From Schmidtea nova (taxonomy: Eukaryota): a stretch of DNA of 64,000 bases. The stretch covers positions 392,274,001 through 392,338,000 of the forward strand of contig CM097883.1 of NCBI GenBank assembly GCA_044892505.1. Reading direction: 5' to 3'. The notes under the pieces were generated by a model, which was given only the letters and a program-made list of their open reading frames with translations, made no database searches and was not told the origin of the DNA. Every line of letters begins with the position of its first letter. The first letter of the stretch is position 1. Both the position numbers and the translations under genes were made by a program. Below, piece after piece: positions 1,223 through 21,400 of the stretch.

Positions 1223-1828
1223 ATGTCGGTGTTGTCAAAATATTCCAAATTGAATTCCAAAGAGTCGTTTCTACTATTCTGTTTGATGATAAGAATATCT
1301 TTGAGCATTTACGAAGCAGGTTTAGATGGTAGGATTGTCCGATCTATTGTTCAAAGAGATGTTCAAAAGGTTTCGATTCAATTACTGAAATTTCTATTGA
1401 TTGCTCTTCCTGCTACGTTTGTCAATAGTTTTATTAGATTTCTAGAAAAGACATTATCGATTTGCTTCAGAACTAGGCTTGTGGAATATTCTTATGAACT
1501 TTATTTCAAGCATCAAACTTATTTTCGCGTGGAAAACATTGATTATCGAATTAAAAGGGTTGACCAAAGTCTCACAAAAGATTTCTCAGTATTTTCATCA
1601 TCATTAGCTCATTTATATTCTCAATTAACGAAACCGTTTCTGGATCTCTGCTTAATGTCATTTTCATTGTATGAACTTGCTCGAAATTGTGGAACTAGTG
1701 GAAGAATTCCATGTATTGTTGCTTCGGGAGTTGTTATTTCAACTGGAGAATTACTGCGATTTGACGATTGTCCCGAAAATCCTCTCGAAAGTCCATTTGA
1801 ATGTTGTTTATTTAGTTACGGAAAATAA
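1223..1828 (+). pseudogene. Truncated peroxisomal ABC transporter (ABCD1/ABCD2-like) N-terminal transmembrane fragment
   Basis: LDGRIVRSIVQRD, LLIALPATFVNSFIRFLE, FRTRLVEYSYELYF, DQSLTKD and HLYSQLTKPFLD match the ABCD transmembrane region. Similarity stops after GELLR (~1760), and no ATPase-domain exons are visible downstream. Confidence 0.8.
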
Positions 1829-2230: not shown

Positions 2231-3658
2231 CTATTTTTCCAACTTCAATCTGTAACGAATAAACGTTTTTTCACGCCGATAAATAATCCCATTTACCGTT
2301 ATGGTTTCATTAGCTTCTATTTGTGAATATTTTCTTTTTCTATTTTCAAGGTGGAGGATCAGTCCATTTTCATATGATATTATAACTCTTGCGATTGACA
2401 AACCGGTAATTACCTCAACGTTTTCTTCAATTGCCTCGAGATTATTTTCAGTTGCCAACTTTAATTTCAATTTCCAATTTTCTAAATCAATTTCCATATC
2501 CTCTGTCAAATCGATTTGCTCTGCCATTTTCTCAATTCCTTCGGAAAGGACAACGGTTTTCGTAATCGCCGTGCTCGTCGTTGGCATTGCGTTTTTGGCA
2601 TGAGCTCTTCAATATTCCTCCAATGAATACTTCTTTGATGGGGTTGCTTTGGGAACTTCGATATCATCAATCCATGAATTTTCAATTTTTAGATATATTT
2701 TCCGAATGTTTTTGACATCCTCCAGGGCTGAATGGATGCGCACTTGCATTTCTTCGACCACAGTTTTTAGTTTGAAGAATTCACCTTTTCTCGATATTCC
2801 TTGCAATTGAAGTGCCTTTGCCGTGGATAAATCCCGAATGCCATATAATTGATTTGTCCAAATTTTCAAATACTGCAATTCCGCATGCAAATCATGGCCA
2901 ACCAATATTTTTCCAACAGTTAAATTCTGGATTTGTTTCATTTCCAAATATTGGTCGCATTGGTTCCTACTAGCAATTTCCGTGATGCCATGTATTCGTG
3001 ATTGGAAGTGTTGCATTTTTCCTCTTGGCGTGAGGTATATATTTTTAATTATTTTCCCGAAATAATTCATGATGGCGATTGACAATGGCACCATTTGTCC
3101 ACTTTCTAATGTGCCGTATTCTGCGTCAATAAACAATATTTTGCTTCTTATTTCTTCTTGGTTTAATTCTTTTCTTATAAAAGACAATCTTCTCTTCATC
3201 ATATATTCTGTTATTGGCAGTAATGTTGGAGCTGATGGCAATTCTGAATCAGCTTGCGGAACTTCTTTGCTGTTTCTGAATCTTGTTTCCAGTGCGATTA
3301 GTGCGTCTTCATTCGCCGATCTAAGCTGCTTTTTTAATGATTCCTCTCGCATTCTCCACGATGAACCTTTGTGCATTTCCCACCATATCTGCTGATTTTC
3401 ATTTATCATTTCAACTTTTCCTTTGAACACATGTAACGTGAATTCCTCTTCATTTCCTACTTTGCTATCTTCCATCAGCTTTGCTCCTCCCTTTCTACTT
3501 ACTCTCAGGATTCTTGTTTTCATTCTTCTGTCGTCAATTCTTAAATAAGTGGTATTTTTGTATTGTCATTGATTTGAAATGGGCCTTGTCCCATGTAGTT
3601 TCGATACAGTTTGAGGTACGCATCATAAATATTTGGGATCCATTGAATCTGTTCCATC
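2231..3658 (-). CDS. DEDDh 3'-5' exonuclease (REX4/ISG20-like) ORF with C-terminal extension; probably one ~470-codon ORF broken by a frameshift (~3550) and a TGA (2609-2611)
   Basis: ExoI FIDAEY, ExoII VGHDLHAEL and ExoIII IHSALED in ORF 2609-3523. ORF 2231-2587 is in the same frame, 7 codons after the stop. An upstream frame reads MEQIQWIPNIYDAYLKLY from ~3658. Confidence 0.75.
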
Positions 3659-4133
3659 ACTGAAATATTTTTAATTTTAAATTTTGTTTAATTTTAAAAT
3701 TTGACGTTATCGCCAAGATGGAGTACTTTGAGTATACCATCCTGGCTGATACAGGTATAAATAATAAATATTTAATAAAATTAATTACCTATTTAATTTT
3801 CTATTTAATTTTAATTTATTAATTTAGGGATTCCCTTATATTCCTAATATTATTTTTGTTCAACCAATCAAATCCGTTTCCGATCGAAAGCGCAAATTTT
3901 ACAATAAATTACATAAATATGGATAAAAGAAAGTTCATACTATTACAATACTAATATTATATTATAATTGCATGCAAAATTAAATTTCTCACTATACAAA
4001 CGTTTCCTCGTAGACAATCCACGGTCTTGATGTTCTGTTGACGTAATGCATGATTGTTTATTCTTTGAAAGCAAATCAGTAGTGAGAGAAGAATAACAAT
4101 GAGAAATGGTGTTGCACTAATAACAATAGTTGA

Positions 4134-5170
4134 TCAAATGATACGTGTTTTTGCATTGGCATTCGATGAAGATGATACGTTTTTTAGAATTGTCACATCA
4201 TAGATATGAGAAGGAATGATTGTCGTTTGAAATTTTTTTGTCATATTTTTATATAGATAATTGTTTTTTGAATCATCAATATCAGTAATGTTATAGGAAA
4301 CTCTAACAAGTTTGTTTTCGACAAGAGTGATCTGCCATTGTTTGGAATGAGAAGTAAATCGATAATATTTGATTTTCATCATAACAAATTTTGAATTCAA
4401 TATAGATCTTAATCTTTAAAAATTTAAAATTTGATGTGAAATGTTGCTTGTTAATATTGCTTGAATTTTTCCGCAATAATGAATTTCGACTTTTTTATTA
4501 GCTTCCGCTTGTCGGAATGCGTTTAATTTCTGATTTTTATATTCAAAGATGACTCGATTTGTTTCATCCTCCAATGCCACCGATTGTTGAGTGGAATAAA
4601 TCTTGAACCATTGATTATCAATTTCAGTACCATTTTCCCGTAATGCCTTTTCGTAATAATGAATGACGAGATTATATTTTTTAAGCAATTCTAAATTAAC
4701 ATAATGTACATAAGGTTTCTTGAGATTTAGCGTATCGATCATGTACTTTTCGAAAATAATTTTCACTTGTTGGGATTCCTGGGGTTCCCAATATACGTTG
4801 ATACCTTTTAAAATTGGTTCTATTGTACTCTACTATTTAATTTTTTTGTCCAAAATTCAATTTCAAATTGATGTTGTATTTTTGTATTATTTTCCTGATA
4901 TTGCTGTTGGGTTATTAACCAGGGATATTTGTAATTCATTGTTAACTCATGCGCAACGTACATATTGTTGTAAAAATTCAACTTTATTGGTGGATCAAAA
5001 TAATTTAATAAATAATTTATTTTTATTTCGTCTCTTGGTTCACAATGATAGACCCATACCATTTGGGTACATATTGCATATATATCAATTTTTTCTAAAA
5101 GTGGAACTCTTTTTATTGCATACATTGGAAAGATTCTAGTTGAAATTGTTCCCAAAACATTTATTATCAT
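4134..5170 (-). CDS. Fragmented accessory ORF(s) of unknown function directly 3' of the Gypsy pol
   Basis: Three consecutive same-strand ORFs (4820-5170, 4416-4766, 4134-4400) start 5 nt after the pol stop; no domain recognised. Confidence 0.45.
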
Positions 5171-5175
5171 TACTG

Positions 5176-7962
5176 TTATTTATTATTATTACTGATATAT
5201 CCCAATGATGCGGAGTTTTTGGAACCCCTTTGTTTGCTGATCATTTCATCTTGCGACTTTTTCTTTTTTGATCTTAGTTGATATTTATTGTCATCCATAA
5301 CTGGCACTTTTTTGCATCTATTAGCATGAATGATAATTGTTCCGGCCTTTTTATTATTTTGTGACCGTAGTTTTAAATTAGTTTCAGTTGTATCACATAC
5401 AAGATATGGTCCTTTAAATGATCTTTGTAGTTTCGGTGATAAACCCTTAGCTGGCTCTGGTTTGTTTACATAAACCAAATCTCCTATTTCAATACCAGGA
5501 ATTCTTGACAAGGCATCTGCATTTGCATTAGATATTGTGCGATATTTAATTTTAAAATCATATTCCTGTAGAGCGATTGACCATCTGATCAGCTTACTGG
5601 CTGAATCTATGCTTCATGAGCCATTGTAGTGGATTATGATCTGTATATACAATAAATTTCCTACCTATTAGATATTGTCTGAACGTGGTTATTCCATAAA
5701 CTAGTGCTAACGTCTCCTTTTCAATGGTAGAATAATTCTTTTCAATGTTCTACTAGCATAGGCAATAACGTGATCTTTCTCGCCGTCAACCTTTTGTCCT
5801 AGTACGTCGCCTAATGCAAAATTACTTACGTCCGTCATTAAGATGAAAGGTATTTTAAAATTTGGGCATCTCAAAATCGGCTTTCTAATTAGACTTTCTT
5901 TGAGCAAATCAAATGCTTCTTGCTGAGCTTTTGTCCATTTAAATTGAGCTTGTTTCTTTAATAGCGTATTCAAAGGTTGTGCCACATGTGAAAAACTTTT
6001 AACTAGCTAATCCAAGAAATTGTCGAACTTGATCTGCATCTTTAGGAATGGGATAATTTTTAATTTTCTCTACATTTTCTGGGTTTGGTTGTAATCCATT
6101 GCGTGAAATAATATGACCAACATAAATTACTTTTGATTTCCCCCATTCACATTTTGAGGGTTTTATTTTCAAATTTGCCTCTAATAATCGCTTGAATACT
6201 GTTTCTACATCCTTTAGGTCTTCCTGAAAACTACTTGAAAAAATTATTATGTCATCAATATCAACTAATGCATGTGGAATGTCACGCAAGACAAAATTCA
6301 TACCTCTTTGGAACGTGGCTGGCGCTCCTGTTAAGCCGAATGGTAATACATTAAATTCATACAAACCTTTGCCGTCTGAAAATGCTGTTTTTCTTCTATC
6401 TTCTTTTACTTTAAACTGATTATATCCTTTATTTAGATAAATTACTATGAAGAATTTCACTTCTCCCATTTGATCAAACATTTCTTGTGGAACTGGAATT
6501 AAATAAGTATCTTTTCTCGTAACTTGATTTAATTTTCGGTAGTCAACACAAAATCTTAAATCACCGTCTTTCTTTTTGACAACAACTATTGATGATGAGA
6601 ATGGTGATGAACTATCTCGTATTATTTTTAATTCTTTCATTGCTTTGATTTGTCGATCGCTTTCTTCTTGATGTATATATGGAATTCTATACGGTCTTAA
6701 TTTAATAGGTGTTTCATCGAGGAGTGGTATCTCGTGTTCTATCACTTGAGTAAGTCCCAAATCATATTCATGCCTAGCAAACACTTTGTCGTATCTTCTC
6801 AGTAACGCCGTGAATTCTCGTTTTTGTACCTTGGTTAGATCGTTGCTAATAACTTGTAGTTTTTTATAGATTTTAATGTTCCGTGGTAACTTGATACTTT
6901 TCTGTTCTAAATTTTGTTAACCTTCCCAGCTTGGTTTTGAGTTTTATTTGAATGGCTTTTGAGCTATGATTTGCTATTTGTACTGGCATTGTTTGATCCT
7001 TGATTTTTACTATCTCATCACACATTGGTAAATCATATTTTTCTACTAGCTTCTGCTTTAGCTCAAATATACATTCGTCATCTGATGCATCTGTTACCTT
7101 AGCATAACATATTACTTCGCTTCTCGCTGGCAATTCCACTGCTTGATTTAAAAAGACTTCTTTGTTTTTAATTTTACTGGGCTGTTCTTTTATTAATTTT
7201 CCTGTAGTTAAATCAAGAGCAATTCCTTGTAATTGTCGCATAACATCCATACCAACTAAACATATTACGGGACTTTTTCTTATCTCGGTTACATTATGCG
7301 TTATTTCTTTATCACCGATAATTAATTTAGCTTCTAGTTTACCAAATACATTTAAACAGTTCTGTGACATTGATTTGATCTTTTTACCCGTTGGTTTCAT
7401 ATTTAATCTGTCTTTACGCGTTAACATTTTGTCTGACACTATTGTGTGACTTGAACCTGAATCCAACAAGGCTTCAACCGCTCTTTTATTAAACTGTATA
7501 TTTATTCGAGTTTGTTTGGCTTCTCCTCCCCTGTTCATCAGCACATAACTACATGGTAGTCCAAGCATGTTTTTCGTTCAATTTCCGCACTTGTTGGCTC
7601 AATATTTTCTAATTCAAATTTGATATGATCTACCGGTTTCATTTCCTTTAATTTTTCACTTGGATATACATTGCTGTTGGCACGAATGTTGGTGTATACC
7701 ATTTTGTTAGAGTATCAATTCCACTCGGCTTTGGTATTGGTTCAAGTAAAAATGTTGATTCTGGCTTTATTTCGCTTCCAACTTTTCTTTTTTGAAAATA
7801 TTTCGGTTCATTTTTATTTTTGTCATTACCGTCATTCTTGTTATTATTTCTGTCACCAAATTCACATAAGGATTCCTCGCTCTTTTGATGGCTTTTCAAT
7901 TGTGCTTTCACACTTGCCATTTCTTTATATTGATAGTAGGGATAGTGAGGACTCAAGGCCAA
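5176..7962 (-). mobile_element. Degenerate Ty3/Gypsy LTR retrotransposon: gag remnant, aspartic protease, RT, RNase H, integrase C-terminal GPY/F module only
   Basis: Protease LLDSGS (6873-7568). RT with RFCVDYRKLN, PFGLTGAPATFQR and LVDIDD (5999-6784). RNase H with TDVSNFALG, DHNPL and NADALSR. Integrase tail SPKLQRSFKGPY (5176-5511). Frameshifts and stops are present; no LTR pair was found. Confidence 0.92.
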
Positions 7963-8549
7963 GCCATTTATCCCTAAATTGTATATATTATGTAATAATT
8001 ATACAGTTTACCCCATCTCCCACCCGCCCTTAAAATTGTGTAATACCTTTTTATTATTTTGTAATCGTTACGTAATTATTACAAAACTTTATATAGAACT
8101 TGAAATTCTTACATAATTCAATAATTGTTATGCAATTGATGACGTTATGCTGTAATTTATTAATTTTTATTTATTTTTCATAATTTTTACAAAAAATATA
8201 AAATAAATTAATTTTTTAAAAATTTTTTCCAAAACTTTCAAAAATGCTCAGATTTAAATAATTTTTATACCAATCTACTGGGAATTCGATGGCGAACAAA
8301 AAAGGGTCAAAAAGTAAAAACATGAAAAATTGGTCTTCTCCGGTAAATTTATTGTGAAAAAACCTTACTTGGTTAAAACTGGTTAAAGTTCAAGAACTTT
8401 TACATATAAATAATCAGAATTTAACGCTCAACAATAAAAAGTGATATTAACTAGAAAAACAACAAAAAACAAAGTATTTAAAAAAAATAAATAAATAAAA
8501 CTTTATTTAAATAAATCTTATCATCTTCAGGCAAATTGTTCATCAACAG

Positions 8550-9080
8550 CATCTTCACGCACGCCCATGATTCACGCCCACATCAATTCCCTTATAATGT
8601 CCATAAGCCAGACTAACATTTTTTCCCACCCAAAGTCTTTTGTCGTCAAGATTAGTCAAGGCAATCTTAGAAGATTTATTAGTAGAGTTGATGATTCTTA
8701 CTAACTATTCTCGACTGATCAACAGAAACTATTGAATTATTATTTTAACAATCCAGATACGACTGATGATTCAGTTTAGTATCCTTCAATGTTATACCCT
8801 TAGCCTTAATGCACTCTTCATTACCTAAAAGACTATAACACTTTGACCTAAGGAATACCCACTCATCATACTTGAATCCATTATTCTCGTCTTTGAATTT
8901 ACCAATGACGGAATCTAGGTTCCTAATATATAATTGGTGATTCGGATCATAATTAGAAGTGTCAAGTAAGTTATCTCTTATCATGGCCGGTAAAAGAATA
9001 TCAAGCTTACAATTTCTAATCTCAAGAAAAAATGAATCGGTGTCACCAGCAACGATGTTAATTTCGCAGTTGAATTCGTT
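8550..9080 (-). pseudogene. Protein-primed family B DNA polymerase, C-terminal remnant
   Basis: AGDTDSFF (motif C), LDTSNY, IGKFKDE, FLRSKCYS, KAKGI, then frameshifted KIALTNLDDKR..AYGHY. The N-terminal bulk is missing. Confidence 0.88.
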
Positions 9081-9146
9081 ACGATATAAAAAACAATAAA
9101 AAACACAATTTTTAAAATAAATCTTTATTTAAATAAATCTTTAGAA

Positions 9147-9528
9147 TTAATTTGTATTGTAAAGGCCATCATAGTATGCCTTTCTCATTTCAGCAGCCAA
9201 GATATGCACAGATTGTTGTCTTTTAAAATCGTGGCAACAAGCACATCCATTGGTGCATGAAACACGCATTGATTCCTTACAAACAATGCAATTTTCAACG
9301 CCCTTGACTCCAGCTCCAAGCACCATATCATAATGCATTTCAAGCAACTCCTCGATATTTATCCCTCTGTATTGGTAAATTTTATGTACCAACAACTCGG
9401 GGGCTCAATAATCGAGATTAGTTTTAATCTTTGGATATAAATCTTGGATCTTTTTGAAAAGTACTTCGAGCAAATAAACTAAAAGAATAAATTAATATAA
9501 AAATAAAAATACTCTTACTTTTAGACAT
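9147..9528 (-). CDS. Small Cys-rich Polinton ORF with a predicted 40-nt intron (9479-9518) and a frameshift
   Basis: ATG TCT AAA A|GTAAGA..TTTTAG|TT TAT TTG gives MSKIYLLEVLFKKIQDLYPK. After a frameshift the frame reads SRLLSPELLVH...CIVCKESMRVSCTNGCACCH. Confidence 0.5.
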
Positions 9529-9578
9529 TTTCAAATTTTCACAATCAATGAGTAACAATTAATACAAACAAAATTTAT

Positions 9579-10013
9579 TTAATTAATTAATGTATTTATT
9601 TCATTAATTATATTTTCCACATAATTTTTAAAATCCAATGTTTTAATTCCAAGCATAACTACTTTTCCGCTGCCAAAGACATTGACACATACTGGATCAA
9701 ATTTCTGTAGACGTAATGCTGGAAATATTTCTGGTTCGAACCAACAACGACATTTCTTTTGTATATCGTATAAATTAATAAAATTGCTGACATCGACCGT
9801 CACGGTAATTGATTGAATCTCTAAATTTTTAATCTTGAACTTCAAATCCCCCGGCTTTAGCGGTTGTTTGCATCCCATTACCCGACACTTGCCAGATTTG
9901 AAGAAGATGATGGGGTACTTGCCGCTTCTGTCAACAACTTGTTTCGGTTTGCCACTCGGGAATATCATGCCGGGAACTAAACATTTACTTTTATAATTGA
10001 TGTTGCTCAACAT
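9579..10013 (-). CDS. TATA-binding-protein-like protein, 144 aa (copy 1)
   Basis: Second TBP repeat IQSITVTVDV..FEPEIFPAL..VNVFGSGKVVMLGIK; first repeat IIFFKSGKCRVMGCK. Confidence 0.88.
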   Translation of the reverse strand: MLSNINYKSKCLVPGMIFPSGKPKQVVDRSGKYPIIFFKSGKCRVMGCKQPLKPGDLKFKIKNLEIQSITVTVDVSNFINLYDIQKKCRCWFEPEIFPALRLQKFDPVCVNVFGSGKVVMLGIKTLDFKNYVENIINEINTLIN

Positions 10014-10214
10014 TTTTGATTAATTAAACAAATATAAACAAAATTAATTAATTAATTAAAATGGAATTAAGAAATGATGCCGTATATCAAATAGTAGGAC
10101 CCAGCGGGAGTGGGAAAACCTTGTTTGTATGTAAATTATTACAATCAAAAATGTTTAAATCGCAATTCAAATTTTCACAATCAATGAGTAACAATTAATA
10201 CAAACAAAATTTAT

Positions 10215-10649
10215 TTAATTAATTAATGTATTTATTTCATTAATTATATTTTCCACATAATTTTTAAAATCCAATGTTTTAATTCCAAGCATAACTACTT
10301 TTCCGCTGCCAAAGACATTGACACATACTGGATCAAATTTCTGTAGACGTAATGCTGGAAATATTTCTGGTTCGAACCAACAACGACATTTCTTTTGTAT
10401 ATCGTATAAATTAATAAAATTGCTGACATCGACCGTCACGGTAATTGATTGAATCTCTAAATTTTTAATCTTGAACTTCAAATCCCCCGGCTTTAGCGGT
10501 TGTTTGCATCCCATTACCCGACACTTGCCAGATTTGAAGAAGATGATGGGGTACTTGCCGCTTCTGTCAACAACTTGTTTCGGTTTGCCACTCGGGAATA
10601 TCATGCCGGGAACTAAACATTTACCTTTATAATTGATGTTGCTCAACAT
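10215..10649 (-). CDS. TATA-binding-protein-like protein, 144 aa (copy 2)
   Basis: Identical to copy 1 except S9G. Confidence 0.88.
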   Translation of the reverse strand: MLSNINYKGKCLVPGMIFPSGKPKQVVDRSGKYPIIFFKSGKCRVMGCKQPLKPGDLKFKIKNLEIQSITVTVDVSNFINLYDIQKKCRCWFEPEIFPALRLQKFDPVCVNVFGSGKVVMLGIKTLDFKNYVENIINEINTLIN

Positions 10650-10696
10650 TTTTGATTAATTAAACAAATATAAACAAAATTAATTAATTAATTAAA

Positions 10697-11318
10697 ATGG
10701 AATTAAGAAATGATGCCGTATATCAAATAGTAGGACCCAGCGGGAGTGGGAAAACCTTGTTTGTATGTAAATTATTACAATCAAAAATGTTTAAATCGCA
10801 ATTCAATAAAATTTATTGGCATCGTGTGCTGATGAAGAACATGGATTGAATCAAGATCAGTTTTGTAAATTAAAAATGACTAATATAAAAGGTTTTGATA
10901 AAATTGGTCATCTAGATTAAAACAAGGTGATGTTAAAATTATCGATGACTTGTATCAGGAAGCCAATAAAGAAAAAGATTTCAACAATTTATTTACAAAA
11001 ATTAGTAGACACTTGGGTGTTACAGTTAATTTCATTGCTCAAAATTTATTCCATCAAGGTGGTAGTCATAGAACCCGGAATTTAAATGTACAATATTTGG
11101 TTATATTCAAAAACCCCCGAGATGCAACAATTATTGATTTTCTTGCAAGACAAGCATACCATAATGATAGAAAATTTTTACTTGATTCATTTCAAGATGC
11201 AACTAAAATTCCTCATGGATATCTGTTTTTCAACTTTACACAACAATGTGTTGATGATTTACGTATAAGAACTGATCTTTTCAATGAAAAAGGTATAACA
11301 GTTTATAAACGAAATTGA
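10697..11318 (+). pseudogene. A32/FtsK-like DNA packaging ATPase (frameshifted)
   Basis: MELRNDAVYQIVGPSGSGKT (Walker A), IIDD (Walker B), SRHLGVTV, QNLF, FKNPRD and HGYLF. Two frameshifts lie between ~10820 and 10910. Confidence 0.9.
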
Positions 11319-11537
11319 AATCATTAAATTAATTAATTAAAATGTCATTCAAAAAAGTCGTTGTTTAACCCGTTATTGGAAAATCCGATAAACAACAAAA
11401 CTTAAAGGTAAAGAAGATGTCATTAAAGAAGACATCATTAAAGAAGATATCATTGAAAAAAGAAGTCAAAAATCAAGAAATCAAAGAAGAAATGGATTAA
11501 ATTATAAACAAAACAAATTGTGAAAAAGCTGCTAATA

Positions 11538-11869
11538 ATGAAAATTAAACGCAGTTTACCATATTTGATAAAAGCTTGATAAAGGCTCCAATTAATAAAC
11601 GTATGACAATCTTACAGGCTTTTCCCCCATTTGTTATAGGTGATTTGCTTGAGGTTATTGTCAATGTAATTCGTGGTAATGTAAATATTAGTAAAGCCAA
11701 AAGATTACGGCTACAAAAACATAAAAGATCAATTTTATCACTAGTCAACACTAAAAATCGTAATCTTATGCGTAAGATAATTTATAAACCAAATGGCGGT
11801 TTCCTAGGTACATTAATTCTAATAGTATTATCAGCTATAAGTGCAATTTCATCATTAAATGGGAACTAA
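11538..11869 (+). CDS. Basic core/protein X-like Polinton protein with GGFL motif and hydrophobic C-terminal helix
   Basis: NVIRGNV..RLQKHKR..PNGGFLGTLILIVLSAISAIS resembles the adenovirus pX/Polinton GG-cleavage tail. An 11-nt tandem duplication near 11565 shifts the N-terminus. Confidence 0.6.
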
Positions 11870-11928
11870 AAATTCAATACCCGATAAACATAATTTAGAC
11901 TTAAATATATTAACATCTTGTTGTAACA

Positions 11929-13025
11929 ATGAAGGAAACATTAACCAAAAAGAAGGTAACCAAAAATCAATTAAAAAAGATTTGGACAAACCCAAAAGAT
12001 CCCGATGGGTTTGCTGGGGTAAACAAAATTTCAAAAAGAGTAAATAATTCAAAGAAAGATACGCAAAAATGGTTATTTGATCAATTAGCATATAGTTTAA
12101 ATAAACCAATGTTGAAAAGATTTCCTACACGAAGTTACAAAACAATTGGTGTTGATGATTTGTGGCAAATGGATTTAATGGAAATGATACCTTTTTCAAA
12201 AATTATTAATGGATACAAGTATATTTTGACTTGTATTGATGTGTTTAGTCGCTATGCACGTGCAGTTCCAACAAAAACTAAATCTGCAAATGAAATGGCT
12301 GAAGCTATAAAAACTTTATTTGCAGATGGGAAACCTCGAAATTTACAAACTGATTTGGGTAAGATTTTAATTTAATTTAAATTTTATTCTAGGTAAAGAA
12401 TTTTATAATAGTAAAGTTAAAGAAATTATCAAGGGTATTAATCATTACTCGGTATTTTCACAATTCAAGGCAGCTGTTGTTGAAAGATTCAATCGAACTC
12501 TGAGAGATAAATTGAAAAAGTACTTTGTTTTTCAAGGAAATAAAACTTGGATAAATGTTTTGCCTAAATTGATTTAGTTATAATTTTTCTCCCCATAAAG
12601 GAATACAAGGAAAGCGACCCATTGATGTTTATTCTACAAATAATATGGATAGTTGGTTATCTGAACAAAGAAAATCAATAAAGAAAAAGCCAAAATACAG
12701 GGTCGGTGATCATGTTAGAATCAGTAAAATCAATGGATCCCCCTTTATCAAGAATTTTGACAATAATTGGAGCGATGAAGTTTATCAAATCTCGAAAATC
12801 AATACAAATCAGAACCCGGTCATGTACTTTATTACCGATTCTAAAAATAATGAAATCAGTGGGAAATTCTATGAACAAGAGTTACAAGTAATTCCAGCCC
12901 CATCAGTATTCAGAATTCAAAAGATTTTAAAAACCAGAATGGTTGGCAAATATAAACAATATTATGTTCAATGGCATGGGTATGAAAAACCCACTTGGAT
13001 ATCTGAAAACCAATTGATTAAATAA
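11929..13025 (+). pseudogene. Polinton retroviral-like (rve) integrase with C-terminal chromodomain; 34-nt intron 12359-12392; frameshift ~12573
   Basis: WQMDL, CIDVFSRY, spliced QTDLGKEFYN, VERFNRTLR, KYRVGDHVRISK, chromodomain YYVQWHGY. Confidence 0.92.
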
Positions 13026-13030
13026 ATATT

Positions 13031-14056
13031 ATGAAAGAAAACCAGTTTTATATGATTTTGCCTAGCAATGCATGCCCTCTTATTTATCCTAATAATGAAG
13101 CTAGTAATTTATGTAGAATTTCAAAATCCGATTTATTTAAATAGTAATGACGATTGGGAAGTTGCTTTGATTGATTTTACTTTTGTATATAATTTGTTCC
13201 CGTATTATAGTAATTCTTTTATTCAAATTGAAACTTAAAGAGAAATTCAAGAAATTAGTTATTTGAGAATCAATAATCAAAATAAATCATTCCAAGTTAT
13301 AGTTTCTCAACCTAGTTCAGACACTGATGTATTTATTGAAAAATATGAAGATTTGGTGTTTGTTTGCCCACATGTTCCATTTAAAATTACATTTCCAGAT
13401 CTTGAACATGCAAAATGTTTTGGATTGGAAAATACAACAATTACAAGTGAAAATGATCATTATCGCTTAAAATTACCAAAATTCACTAATGATAATAGTC
13501 TTGAACAATTTGGAATTTTATTTAATTATGGCATTAAAACTGTTAATGATCATTATTTTCAAGAAGAATTATTCATAACGTCATTACCCGAATTGCAAGG
13601 ATATTTAATGAAAATTAATCCATCTCCATTTAAAGAAATGAAACTTGTCAATAATGAATTGGTTAAAATTATTCTTCATTATAATATTTAAAAAATTACT
13701 TTTGATTCAAATTTAACCAAATCTCTGGGTCTACAGAAACAAATACAGAAATAATCGGTGTAAAAATTCCCAAAATTTTACAACTTCATCAGCAAATATT
13801 CATTTACAGCAACATTATCGAACCAGTGACTGTTGGAGATGTACGAGTTCCCCTCCTAAAATCAATTTGGATCAAGAAATATGACCAAGGTGAAGTTGTA
13901 CAAATTGAAATAAAGAATCCAATGTATTTGCCGATTTCAACATCAACTATAAACAACATTGAAATCAATATTCGTGAAGACAGTGGAAAATTAATTAAAT
14001 TTTCAAAAGATACAAAGACTCATTTGACTCTATATTTTCGTAAAATAAATGATTAA
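13031..14056 (+). pseudogene. Minor capsid (penton-like) protein, paralog 1, with stops and frameshifts
   Basis: FYMILPSN..WEVALIDF N-terminus and FIYSNIIEPVTVGDVRVPLL..IEINIREDSGKLIKF..LTLYFR C-terminus. Confidence 0.75.
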
Positions 14057-14441
14057 AAAGGATTTTTGTGTAAATTTACCAAGCAATTCTTGCCCATTGA
14101 CACATCCTAATAATAAAGCTGGAAAATTCAATGTTGAATATCAAAACCCGATTTATTTGGATGGTAGTTGGAAAGTTGCTCTTATGGATTTTACTTTTGT
14201 GTACAATGAATTTCCGTTTTATAATAGTTCAAGTATAAAATTTACTAGAAGTGAATTACATTCTAGTTATGAATATTTCAATTTTAACCAACAAAAGAAT
14301 GAATATGATATTAGTCACGATTCTAATTATTATTTGATGTATATTGATGGCAATATTTTAAATGTAAATTGTAAATATTTTCCATTTAAAATAATATTTG
14401 ATAGTGTTGAAGAAGCTAAAAAATTAGGGTTTCTAATTTAA
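14049..14441 (+). pseudogene. Minor capsid (penton-like) protein, paralog 2, 3' truncated
   Basis: FCVNLPSNSCPLTHPNN..QNPIYLDGSWKVALMDFTFVYN is paralogous to the start of paralog 1; its ATG overlaps the end of paralog 1. Confidence 0.72.
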
Positions 14442-15680: not shown

Positions 15681-15989
15681 GGAACTACGCGTAAGCTTAT
15701 CCACTGCTCCTTTTTCTCGTTATCCGGTTGATCAACTCCTAAATACGTCAATTTAGTTTTATTTTTCCAATAACTTCAACGTTTTCACCAGCCCTCACAC
15801 TGTGCAGCCAATAACTGTGTTTCTTAACACACTCTGATACCAGATTCTGGTCGCGCCCACTCTAAAATATTTTTAAAATTAATAAAATAATAATTAAAAT
15901 AATTAATCGGGTGCTTGATCGCTATGAGAGATTGTGGGGCGAGCCTGGAAGCCGTTAGACGGTCTTATCGAAATCTATATAAATCTTAT

Positions 15990-16620
15990 ATGATGGCAGA
16001 TTTAGCAAACTTAGAAATTAGAAACATTTTGAAATCTTATGGAGAAGAAATTGGCCCAATTACTGCAACCACAAGAAATATATATTTGAAAAGGATTAAA
16101 GACTTTCAAAAAACGCAAAACTTCGAATAGTATGAAATCAGAACAAATATTGACAAATAAAACCAATACTTTACTAAAATCAAACACAACAATCCCACAA
16201 ATGACACAATCAAATATATTGAATATAAATGGAAATCACGGAAATAAATATCAACGTCATGCAAACATTGAAACTCAAACATCATTTGGAACACCGGGAA
16301 ATGTTAATAAATCGATAAACCTACCGCAAAGATTGAATCAAAAAGAGAGAATAACAACAAAGCAAAACGAATCTTGTTCAAGCTCAGATTCAGATTTCCA
16401 GACTTTTGCAGCAAATAATTATCAAAAAGGAACAAAGACCAACAATTAGTCACCAATGCCACAATATTACCGACAGGATTATGACAACAATTCAATTAAA
16501 TCAAATAATAACAGGAATAATAGTCCAAATCAAACAAAAGCTGATGATGATAACAGCAATAACAGCAATAAAAAATGGAAATCTGGCAATTCTGAATGTC
16601 CAGAAATTCGTGTAAAATGG
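15990..16620 (+). pseudogene. LEM-domain inner nuclear membrane protein fragment (frameshift and stop)
   Basis: MADLANLEIRNILKSYGEEIGPITATTRNIYLKRI is a LEM motif, followed by broken S/N/T-rich frames. Confidence 0.7.
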
Positions 16621-18437: not shown

Positions 18438-21400
18438 TTAATCAGATAAAACAACATCATCATCCAAGGGTGCGACACCGAGTCGAGCTCGCACATTCGC
18501 GATCGTCAGTTCATGGAATAAATGCCTAGTGACAGCTGGAACTCTGACCCGCAACATCTCCTCATTTGCATTACCGTTATCCGTATTGTTCTCACAGAGT
18601 TTACATCTCCAACTGTTTTCTTGACTCGCCCCCCCGTTAGCTCCCTGCATGAACCAGGGAACGCGGTCCTGTACCGGCCGGTAATAAGAATGAACAAAAC
18701 TCTTGCAATTCTTGCAGTAGCGCGCCACGACCTTGTCTGAGTTGCAATCGATGATCCTGTCTTGCAGGCAAAAGGTAGCGCCATGGGATAGCAACCCGTC
18801 GCGTTCCATTTCCCCCAAACGAATACCCCCTCCTATCTTCCTGCCCTTCACCGGCTGCCGAGTAGTACTATCGATTTTCCCAATTGTCCTCACTTGGTAC
18901 TTGTCCTCCACCAAATGCCGCAGCCGCTGGTAATAGACGACCCCCATGGTGATTTCGTCATTGATCATGCGGCCCCTGTACCCGTCATAGCACCGCTCGT
19001 AACCGAACCCGTCATAATGGCGCGATTTCAAGCCCGCCATGTACTGCTCGACAATGTCCGCCGATTGGAAGGCGGTCGAGTCGATCGGCTGCGAGGAGAG
19101 GGCGGCGAGCTTGCCTGCGATGAACTCGATCATCATGCCGACAGTCATTCTGCTGGGTATGCTGTGCGGGTTGAACAGCTGGTCCGGCACGATCCCGTCC
19201 TCCGACATGGGCATCTCAGCCATCGGCACCTTCAGGCTGTTGACTCCCTTCTGCCCGTGCCGACTGGAGAACTTGTCCCCGATGTCCGTGTTGCGCAACA
19301 GCTTGATGCAGATGGTCGCGCAGCAGGTGTTCCCGTTCAGGGAGGCGCTGATCACGTAGCCGATCTCGTTCTCCTTGTACTTGGTGGCCTTGGTCTGGTC
19401 GGTCTGCGCGCAGTATTGCGCGTAGATGTTGCTCTTGCCCGGGATCAGCTTGATGCCGATCGGCGGCAGCCCGTCGCTGTCCAGGTCCGGGAACACCTTC
19501 TTGCCGCATCCGAGCACGCTCTCGTCCAACCGACCACGTTCCGGGGTCAGATCGATCACGTAGTTCTTGTAGATGGCGCAGCGGCCCATCCCCCGCTCCA
19601 GGCTGTTCAGATTGATGACCATAGCGTCCTCCATGTCGTATGCGGTGTAGCTGGCAATCGCGACTATTGGGTTGTACCCCAGCGGCCGCTTCTTCATGTC
19701 GTATTCATCGTAGGTCTTTGATCTGGTCAGGGGCACCTGTGGGGTCAGGAAGCAGTACAACTTGTTGTCGGACCGATACCGAGTCGTGTAGTAGGTGAAC
19801 CCCATGCTCTGCTTGCTCATCTGGCATTGGTAGAGATTTCTGGGCGACGGGTTGTAATTCTGGTACGGGGTGAACCCGGCGGTGAAGCTGTACGTGGATT
19901 CTGGACTCAACTCCTGGTGGGTCACTGACAGGTCTTCGTCGCCTCCCGCTTCCGTGTTGCAGGAAATATCGAGATAAGTCTGCTCGAACGTTCCGATATA
20001 CTCGATGACTGGCCGATCGAACATGATATTGTAAACCGGGCGCAATAAGCGACCGGAATTGGTGAAAATAAAAAGTCCGGGAAATTGCGCTGCGGTTGTG
20101 GAGATTTGTTTGCAGACGATTTCCGTTGTACTTGGCACTGGAATTGCAGGATCTGGGAATATTTTTCTATATCGGATATGGTTGGCGAGATCCGGCGCGT
20201 TTTCGTCGTAAATAAATCCGATCAGTTTCCCGTTGAGCATTACGCAGATGTATTGGCTTTTATCTGGAAGGTCTTTCATTCGTTTCAATCCTATTGTATT
20301 TTGTCTCAGGAATCGTTCGAGACTCTCTTCTTCGGCAAGTGGAGCGGATGTTGATTGGACCATTGTGTTGACACTGAAATGGTTCAATAATCCACATGGG
20401 GTACCGTCGGGGGTGTGCACTGGACACACAAATCCCCAACTTTCCGGTAACAAGCGACGAATCGTTGACGATTTCATTTCGATGAAGAAAGCTCCTCTGT
20501 GAAATGCACGGAAATTGGCAATAAAACGATAGAAATTAATATTATCAGTCAAAATTCTCAGGCCAGTATTTTGTTTGACGCCTGGAACGACTACCGAACC
20601 CAGGTTGCCAGTTGATAGCAAATAAAGCATTGGGTGTAGTATTTTTTTGGATTCTTTGAATGACGCTCTTACAAAATCTAGAAAACGAAAAATAATAGGA
20701 ATATTGTTGATAATAATGAATAACAATGATTGCCCGTCATCCAGCATATATTATTTATTGATATAATAATTTTTATTGATTTAAAAAGACAATATTTAAT
20801 TCATTCTAATATGTACCTAACATATATAAAATGCCACTGTCTCTTGGTCATATAATTTTATAAAAATTACTGTCATTTACCGAGTCATTTACATTTACTT
20901 TTTATATAAATGCTTTAACCCTTAATAACCTAGAGTTTCAATTTTGATACCAATCTTTTAAACCTAATGTTCACATTACTATTAGTTTTTTTTTATAGGT
21001 TGGCTGTTCGTATTTTACTGTTGTATAATATTCTTTCCAACGAAATTAAAAAAAAAACAAATGTCATTATTCATCTAGGCCCTCAAGCAAACACAATAAT
21101 ATTAAAAAAAATCACTTTCGTAAATCAGGCTACTAAGGGTTAAATAGAAATACAAAAGTTTATAATATTTAAATTATTTTTTAATTCTATCGATTATATT
21201 AATTCATAATTATTAATTAAATGTTCATAACTTTCTTAATTAAGCGAATTGAAGAAAAACGTTGCAAGGGGAAATTATATGAATATTCGATGACTGCTGG
21301 ATTCATGACAATGGAAATTATATGGTATTGTAATACTTGTGTAGACATTTTAATTTGAAAATTATTGAAAAATAAGAATTATTATACAATTAAGCATTTA

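Follow-up and report, generated by a model that had tools for sequence, protein, structure and literature searches.

The window analysed here is a 64,000-nucleotide stretch of the Schmidtea nova genome in which positions 9579–10649 hold, on the minus strand, two open ORFs of 144 codons each, both TBP-like (TATA-binding protein-like) and both lying within a Polinton copy (Table 1). An earlier note on this DNA had described a single intact 144-aa ORF with two TBP-type repeats, and while the ORF is real, two tandem copies of it span the interval. The two arms of the underlying duplication (9530–10170 and 10166–10806) differ by one mismatch and overlap by 5 nt at their junction; because the duplication is absent from all 28 sister copies fetched, with no second TBP copy within 1.5 kb in any of them, we take it to be private to the window locus. 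The Polinton copy itself runs from 7935 to about 14433, lacks the major capsid, protease and pPolB genes as well as the right end, and is decayed, with its main part 94–97% identical to one sister copy. Placement of the TBP ORF next to the packaging ATPase, as the earlier note had it, holds, whereas the "pPolB remnant" on its other side is part of the left terminal inverted repeat, which carries a copy of the pPolB 3′ end; these roughly 150 codons stay open at the left end of most sister copies. Nor can the openness of the TBP ORF among broken neighbours serve in itself as evidence for selection, since the ATPase is whole in 27 of 28 sister loci and the insert that interrupts the integrase is common to 13/13 genome copies; the neighbours were broken by decay of the window copy alone. 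That insert (42–44 nt, GT...AG, found in 0/10 outside relatives) reads as a probable intron, which would imply nuclear Pol II transcripts.

Table 1. Features of the Polinton copy in the window (positions are those of the whole stretch).
Feature	Position	Strand	Basis
Left terminal inverted repeat, AGTAG end at 7935, diverged	7935–9087		blastn to both ends of whole sister copy
pPolB 3′ end copied in left inverted repeat, broken here	8530–8984	-	sister-copy comparison
Small Cys-rich frame	9150–9404	-	no Pfam match
636-bp tandem duplication covering TBP gene, spacer and ATPase codons 1–36	9530–10806		self-comparison, sister copies
TBP-like gene, copy A (Ser9)	9579–10013	-	ORF list, Pfam
TATAAACA box, duplicated copy, before ATPase stub at 10061–10168	10033–10040	+	read in sequence
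TBP-like gene, copy B (Gly9), head to head with ATPase	10215–10649	-	ORF list, phmmer, Pfam, model
Candidate late-promoter box TATAAACA, 27 nt before ATPase ATG	10669–10676	+	motif scan
A32-like packaging ATPase, three pieces in window copy	10697–11318	+	PF04665 above cut-off in sister copy
TATAAACG box, 37 nt before short basic ORF	11304–11311	+	read in sequence
TATAAACA box, 34 nt before pX-like gene	11503–11510	+	read in sequence
Adenovirus pX/mu-like core protein gene, start broken in window copy	11538–11869	+	Pfam, sister copy
GATAAACA box, 45 nt before integrase ATG	11883–11890	+	read in sequence
rve integrase with chromodomain, interrupted by short intron-like insert	11929–13025	+	Pfam, copy comparison
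TATAAACA box, 79 nt before putative minor capsid gene 1	12951–12958	+	read in sequence
Putative minor capsid gene 1, broken in window copy	13031–14056	+	assigned by position
TATAAACA box, 100 nt before putative minor capsid gene 2	13948–13955	+	read in sequence
Putative minor capsid gene 2, cut off; element copy ends here	14049–14433	+	sister comparison

Around the Polinton copy, its left end abuts a retroelement remnant (2231–7920, minus strand) that contains a reverse transcriptase (5999–6640), an aspartyl protease (6873–7568) and a 304-aa ORF (2609–3523) with a weak DEDDh exonuclease match. The host genes flanking these insertions include an ABC transporter fragment (1223–1828, plus strand) and a frame at 15903–16446 (plus strand) that may resemble a LEM-domain protein. 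Further along, 18438–20747 (minus strand) is an ORF for the second-largest subunit of host RNA polymerase I, whose third-position GC moves from 0.36 to 0.94 and back to 0.43 within one frame in a genome of 30% GC.

Turning to the family as a whole, which is young, we scored the best 150 of 19,084 candidates in the 1.25-Gb own genome, a best-scoring subset and no random sample, and found all 150 TBP matches stop-free, 143–144 residues long and 96–100% identical. Seven copies traced end to end measured 15.3–15.8 kb with one of 17.8 kb, and all seven possessed AGTAG...CTACT termini, inverted repeats of about 1.3 kb and perfect 6-bp target duplications. Their gene order begins with the left repeat (carrying the pPolB 3′ copy), the Cys-rich frame, TBP and the divergently oriented ATPase, continues with a short basic ORF, the pX-like gene, the integrase and two putative minor capsid genes, and closes with a 135-aa ORF, the major capsid gene, the protease, pPolB and the right repeat. 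Pfam matches support the ATPase (PF04665, 27.8 vs cut-off 22.8, sister copy), the adenain-like protease (PF00770, 25.1 vs 21.3, sister copy) and the rve integrase (PF00665, 32.9 vs 32.6), while the protein-primed PolB exceeds the cut-off (PF03175) in sister subfamilies whose PolB is 52–83% identical to that of the window family, the N-terminal PolB frame of the window family itself matching Endonuclease_7 only. For the major capsid protein, no sequence-level match was found, and its predicted model (pLDDT 75) is a double jelly roll with a Foldseek E of 7e-14 to iridovirus and mavirus capsids; the putative minor capsid proteins had no Pfam match and fell only into unnamed Atlas clusters.

Several other arrangements were seen among these elements. 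PolB-only palindromes, in which two pPolB genes are inverted and neither virion genes nor TBP are present, occur at L201-L202 (1795–17548), L203-L204 (2101–16892) and L213-L214, with near-perfect 7-kb inverted repeats in L201 and L203, and L205 is likewise PolB-only; possibly, these palindromes are non-autonomous replicating derivatives. An element of another TBP-bearing subfamily is apparently nested in the integrase region of a window-family copy (L035-L036-L137, G000:C1:521779301-521809300), and five TBP-bearing units repeat in tandem every 8.3 kb or so at G000:C1:569597074-569630675 (L008-L012).

Evaluating the 144-aa product by profile and structure searches, the checks that the earlier note had proposed, confirmed a TBP-fold protein in the predicted model. 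Pfam TBP (PF00352) matched at 48 bits against a cut-off of 22.9, over residues 64–139 and thus repeat 2 only, and phmmer against the PDB returned 35 sequences at E<=1, every one a TBP (best 2z8u, E 4e-11). The AF2 model, built with 91 aligned relatives, reached pLDDT 97.2 and displays the two-repeat saddle β-sheet; Foldseek against the PDB gave its top 44 matches at E<=0.001, the matches listed being TBPs, and VIA aligned 144/144 residues of the model to TBP (yeast 66–239) at Z 13.0 and rmsd 2.5 Å, with Z 6.8 for the best unrelated row. Repeat 2 is complete in the model, whereas repeat 1 consists of four strands with no helix in residues 1–80, such that both of its helices are gone, the shortening noticed earlier is borne out, and the canonical feature of two helices per repeat is absent. 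In TBP, the helices missing here carry the contacts to TFIIA, TAF1, Brf1 and Mot1.

At the residue level, we numbered positions after yeast TBP, anchoring repeat 2 by alignment of the host TBP exon to yeast 184–216 and repeat 1 by motif and the VIA aligned range, and counted conservation over 91 aligned TBP-like proteins. The FEPEIFP stirrup (residues 92–98) and both repeat-2 phenylalanines, F97 (F190, 90/91) and F113 (F207, 91/91), are kept as the earlier note had read them, and so is the F116 equivalent of repeat 1 (F38, 90/91), with F99 missing (K22 in a register that is less sure there). Hence three of the four intercalating phenylalanines of canonical TBP are retained, the F99 column being P, K or R across the 91 proteins, and F18 (55/91) might substitute. 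By sequence, the acidic stirrup that serves TFIIB is likewise kept (E93 81/91, E95 89/91), along with P98 (P191, 78/91), whereas the paired asparagines N69/N159 are not both present, N4 (N69) being found in 80/91 and position 68 (N159) being S or T in 91/91. Other DNA-face residues were replaced and then fixed, namely R44 (V122, 90/91), M46 (T124, 91/91) and N111 (L205, 91/91), and likewise T/S70 (V161, 90/91), N6 (V71, 67/91) and R101 (I194, 64/91). V71, V122, T124, N159, V161 and L205 are DNA-contact positions in Table 1 of PMC12529657, and PMC1636458 lists I194, V203 and L205 as positions changed in the yeast altered-specificity mutant TBPm3 and describes a yeast TBP variant that discriminates against C at downstream positions. 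Since these contact residues are fixed and non-cellular, the DNA face of the element protein is strongly constrained, yet unlike the cellular one.

Placed against cellular TBP (PF00352), the element protein shares the saddle fold over its 144 residues, a complete repeat 2 and the equivalents of F116/F190/F207, N69, P191 and the acidic stirrup. It differs in being about 30 residues shorter, in lacking the repeat-1 helices and F99, in the replacement of N159, in polar residues at V71, V122, V161 and L205 and Met at T124, and in its 24–29% identity and separate clade. Judged on its residues and predicted model, it is a member of the TBP family that fails three canonical features (the helices, the fourth phenylalanine and the asparagine pair).

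The gene is widespread. Head-to-head TBP and ATPase genes were found at 28/28 sister loci, and with the 150/150 intact scored matches this answers the earlier suggestion to look for intact Polintons of the same arrangement. Elsewhere in the same genome, other subfamilies, 55–80% identical, occur and the ATPase adjoins TBP in 20 of 23 further TBP loci; own-genome copies picked by ATPase alone possessed TBP in 7/7 cases, two more in that set having been picked by TBP and left out of the count, and those picked by PolB possessed it in 6/6 where a virion module was present, the four others being PolB only. Scanning metagenomes yielded 77 TBP loci, five of them in a distinct canonical-like set of which three were placed with non-element TBPs in the tree, and a Polinton core gene was visible at 33 of the 77, most others being short contigs. 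In a profile search, the number of clusters (50% identity) was 57 at E<=1e-30 and rose to 718 at E<=1e-10, ordinary TBPs then being included. The position of the gene varies among Polintons, in that it may precede the ATPase, on either strand, or follow the capsid module or PolB, and the correlation of TBP with ATPase distances (r 0.82, 22 loci) reflects shared history only. As a separate observation on the own genome, 143 of 150 PF00352 matches, among those listed, fell in a score band where 23/23 inspected were of element type; when TBP paralogues are annotated in this genome, most PF00352 matches will be element copies.

Comparing copies revealed purifying selection: dS was defined for 27 of 52 own-genome pairs, which gave dN/dS of 0.08–0.25 (pairs that are not independent, as some copies were fetched twice), and 49 metagenome pairs had a median of 0.19 (maximum 0.42); the ATPase gave 0.02–0.08. 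The phylogeny with host TBP that the earlier note had called for, run in quick mode on 79 rows after 11 fragmentary or multi-repeat proteins were dropped and element proteins thinned, set 54 element TBP rows on one side of a branch with SH-aLRT 99, in which P rows were labelled by sequence signature and only the locus rows independently. The host TBP exon, 29% identical to the element TBP, groups with eukaryotic TBPs, outside the single clade of element proteins, and the tree singles out no source of the gene, Nucleocytoviricota included, its forks near the base of the non-element side being open. Two outcomes named in advance as fatal, absence of a TBP fold and a host fragment confined to this locus, are thus contradicted, the latter because of the intact matches, the TBP genes in sister loci, the selection and the separate clade. 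Altogether, a real TBP gene, to judge from these comparisons, is widespread and under selection in Polintons.

We next consider the upstream regions, in which an oriented (T/C)ATAAACA box recurs. ATAAAC lies within 70 nt before the start of 43/43 ATPases, and after dereplication the box was found in 24/24 ATPase upstream regions (shuffle mean 2.4, max 8) at a median of about 35 nt before the ATG. Dereplicated regions of other genes had it less regularly, with pX 8/11, major capsid (MCP) 8/10, integrase 7/13, minor capsid 6/12, protease 3/5 and the 135-aa ORF 1/8. In a set of 70 late upstream regions, 17 had no box within 70 nt; on the reverse strand of late-gene upstream regions the box count was 0. 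In an unbiased ranking, the hexamer of the box came top (40/45 vs 4.1 in shuffles). The base before ATAAAC was T in 33, C in 17, G in 3 and never A, that after it was A in 47/53, and position 7 of the box is fixed as C. A run of TTAATTAA before some starts was tried as a motif candidate and dropped as not general outside the own genome.

The TBP gene is preceded by something else, its upstream regions having the box in 2/45 (shuffle 1.8) and, in the dereplicated count, in 2/53 (shuffle 2.3). Among metagenome TBP upstream regions, a TATA followed by an initiator-like TCA occurred in 16/45 (shuffle 0.8) and was absent from 29/45, as against 1/33 late genes, and in the window family the 47–63-nt TBP-ATPase spacer had no such TATA-initiator pair on the TBP strand. 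Because TBP's own promoters use canonical TATA and late genes the box, we distinguish two promoter classes in one element. One distant clade has mostly CATAAAC and differs at TBP positions 103, 109 and 121, which is a single event; a C2H2 zinc-finger gene (L113:2457-2849) and a phospholipase A2-like gene (L122:2-358) were also seen in this clade. Sharing of the box by most packaging and capsid genes suggests that the element may use the TBP-like protein for its late genes, and the earlier idea that Pol II is redirected to element promoters gains a specific candidate in this oriented box.

Elements without a detected TBP offer a comparison of limited reach. Nine PolB-picked viral contigs, all from distant elements, were devoid of TBP matches, and their 6 ATPases and 3 capsid genes lacked the box. 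Among 54 PolB-picked MAG contigs, 11 carried an ATPase or capsid gene and one of these (L234) a TBP; L234, the only TBP-positive element outside the own genome that was picked without using TBP, has the box before MCP and lacks it before the ATPase. The other ten contigs gave 12 starts, 10 after two duplicates were removed, with the box before 0, and two more rows without an ATG. Overall, the box preceded 0 of 19 distinct ATPase or MCP starts in TBP-negative controls, which are distant or partial elements with several starts uncertain, a comparison weakened by a chance rate of about 1 in 10 per start (from shuffles); ten of these starts come from partial contigs in which absence of TBP is not proven, and only four controls are strong animal-type matches. 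No close TBP-negative Polinton was found in scans of viral and genome contigs, the phage collection and the own genome: ATPase and MCP scans of viral contigs returned 0, 2 weak and 0 loci, the ATPase scan of genome contigs 0, the phage collection no match, and a search of the own genome with PF04665 nothing at E<=1e-8. MAGs G001 and G002 had no TBP-family match, which is no proof of absence. Because a close TBP-negative relative was not found, box and gene may simply be co-inherited.

Viral TBPs with which to compare this one exist. KSHV ORF24, as described in PMC12529657 and its preprint (10.1101/2025.08.25.672222), also has a viral TBP fold with a polar DNA face, polar at V122, T124, V161 and L205 too, and in that account the herpesvirus vTBP pairs with a non-canonical late box, TATTWAA, where the element has its candidate (T/C)ATAAACA. 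ORF24 differs there in being multidomain, with four phenylalanines, direct binding of Pol II, five other viral factors and no acidic TFIIB residues, whereas the element protein is 144 aa of TBP fold only, with three phenylalanines and the stirrup kept. It is also not close to BcRF1 in the structure search (E 0.011), and the likeness is probably convergent: the proposed action would resemble that of the herpesvirus viral TBP by analogy, without membership of that family. Nucleocytoviricota TBP homologues share the viral TBP fold and are the top BFVD matches (E 1e-7 to 1e-3), but these are 186–547 aa long and 9–17% identical. In many cases giant viruses encode an RNA polymerase of their own, and none was among the mapped ORFs of the Polinton.

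Adintoviruses, or MELD viruses, share the Polinton gene set according to the available part of Starrett et al. (2021, PMC8502044; bioRxiv 10.1101/697771), whose Fig. 5 legend carries a TBP label for adintovirus-like PolB elements. That label belongs to the section on non-animal datasets, stands in the legend alone, and may denote this TBP family or another; nothing on TBP structure, spread or promoter was found in the available text, and a term search of the supplement gave no TBP match. The earlier statement that no Polinton TBP had been described therefore needs amending for the label in this legend, and stands insofar as no discussion of one was found in the same source. Within the literature covered, to which subscription journals and Repbase do not belong, no account turned up of an element-encoded factor linked to a late promoter in Polintons, and the part of PMC12220804 available held nothing bearing on the subject.

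Bringing these lines together, we consider it probable that Polintons have long carried this gene, and that it encodes a pared-down TBP of altered DNA specificity acting as a late-promoter factor. In such a scheme, as the promoter motifs suggest, host TBP and Pol II would transcribe the TBP-like gene early from a TATA-plus-initiator promoter. Its product, given the fold and residues, would bind the minor groove of (T/C)ATAAACA through three intercalating phenylalanines and a polar, re-tuned sheet, and the kept acidic stirrup points to recruitment of host TFIIB and with it Pol II, such that transcription of the ATPase, core, integrase, capsid and protease genes would start near their ATG. Most speculatively, loss of the repeat-1 helices might keep the protein from host TBP complexes and regulators.

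Differing from canonical TATA by one base (TATAAAC against TATAAAA), the box may instead be a variant TATA read by host TBP or a paralogue, leaving the element protein some other role, such as one at the termini or at promoters that are used early or tied to replication. A solved structure that by its title has wild-type TBP on a C(-25) variant (1qn3), the several TBP paralogues of the host, the lack of a close TBP-negative control and the boxless ATPase of L234 all fit this explanation, which we nevertheless hold unlikely, as position 1 of the box is C or G in 20/53 with position 7 fixed as C, the TBP gene's own promoters use canonical TATA and thereby define a second class, and the box is absent from 19/19 TBP-negative starts. 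For the record, the host loci in question comprise a canonical TBP with divergent paralogues (L141/L144, L142/L146, L143/L145) and four TFIIB-family loci (L140-L146, L284-L288), and introns interrupt the region of interest in the TFIIB-like genes. A protein acting mainly as a decoy, tying up TFIIB or other TBP partners and lowering host transcription, would be in keeping with the acidic stirrup and with the loss of one phenylalanine, N159 and two helices, which could weaken DNA binding; yet the most conserved residues are the new ones on the DNA-facing sheet, needless for a pure decoy, and because of this, and with the box left without explanation, we regard a decoy as decidedly improbable.

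A variant rather than an opposite of the late-promoter-factor explanation is that its reading of the box depends on a second protein encoded by the element, much as ORF24 requires ORF34 and further factors. Repeat 1, its back being bare, could offer a surface to such a partner, and two unannotated accessory families, present in 24/78 and 23/78 TBP-bearing loci (L057:2738-3082, L090:5843-6352), are candidate partners or early regulators; but no accessory family extends across all clades, though most contigs are short, and the TFIIB stirrup is kept, unlike in ORF24, so we give this variant a very low probability. Of the accessory ORFs, 7/11 had no Pfam match and 0/11 were TFIIB-like. ATAAACA also fits the forkhead consensus, and TATAAA and CATAAA are polyadenylation variants; many boxes do lie near the end of an upstream gene. 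A forkhead site or polyadenylation signal unrelated to the TBP-like gene is even so disfavoured to the point of being barely credible, since the 70 late upstream regions contain ATAAACA in 47, GTAAACA in 0, the reverse in 0 and AATAAAC in 0, and the box also stands before ATPases arranged head to head with TBP, where no gene lies next to them upstream on the same strand. That the window holds a recent host TBP fragment or neutral passenger finds nothing in its favour beyond the duplication private to this copy, and we count it refuted, with next to no chance of being right, by the intact matches (150/150, best of 19,084), the 29% identity to the host TBP exon, the branch (SH-aLRT 99) that sets 54 element rows apart, and the purifying selection.

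Returning to the late-promoter factor, a named protein with an 8-bp candidate target makes the proposal testable by gel shift (TATAAACA vs CATAAACA, TATAAAAG and TATAAATA) and reporter. Virus-encoded TBPs were known already, and this element TBP with its concrete candidate target appears to be a new variant, one in which a virus would have adapted TBP to late genes for a second time, apparently independently. As a natural TBP with seemingly altered specificity and missing helices, it asks which parts of TBP initiation needs. If the proposal is true, protein and box would form an orthogonal TBP-promoter pair of natural origin, this viral late-transcription system would be much simpler than that of herpesviruses with its complex of six proteins, and the shift from TATAAAC to CATAAAC with three repeat-2 changes would amount to a readable specificity code. 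The proposal bears on how Polintons time capsid-gene expression and on whether they need a helper virus: if true, it would be evidence that these elements express virion genes in the nucleus with no giant virus as helper. For a broad Polinton clade, it is possible, if short of probable, that a self-contained early-to-late switch may be run by one 144-residue TBP, reduced to its DNA-binding sheet and TFIIB stirrup, re-specified for (T/C)ATAAACA and, through loss of two helices, freed from host regulators.
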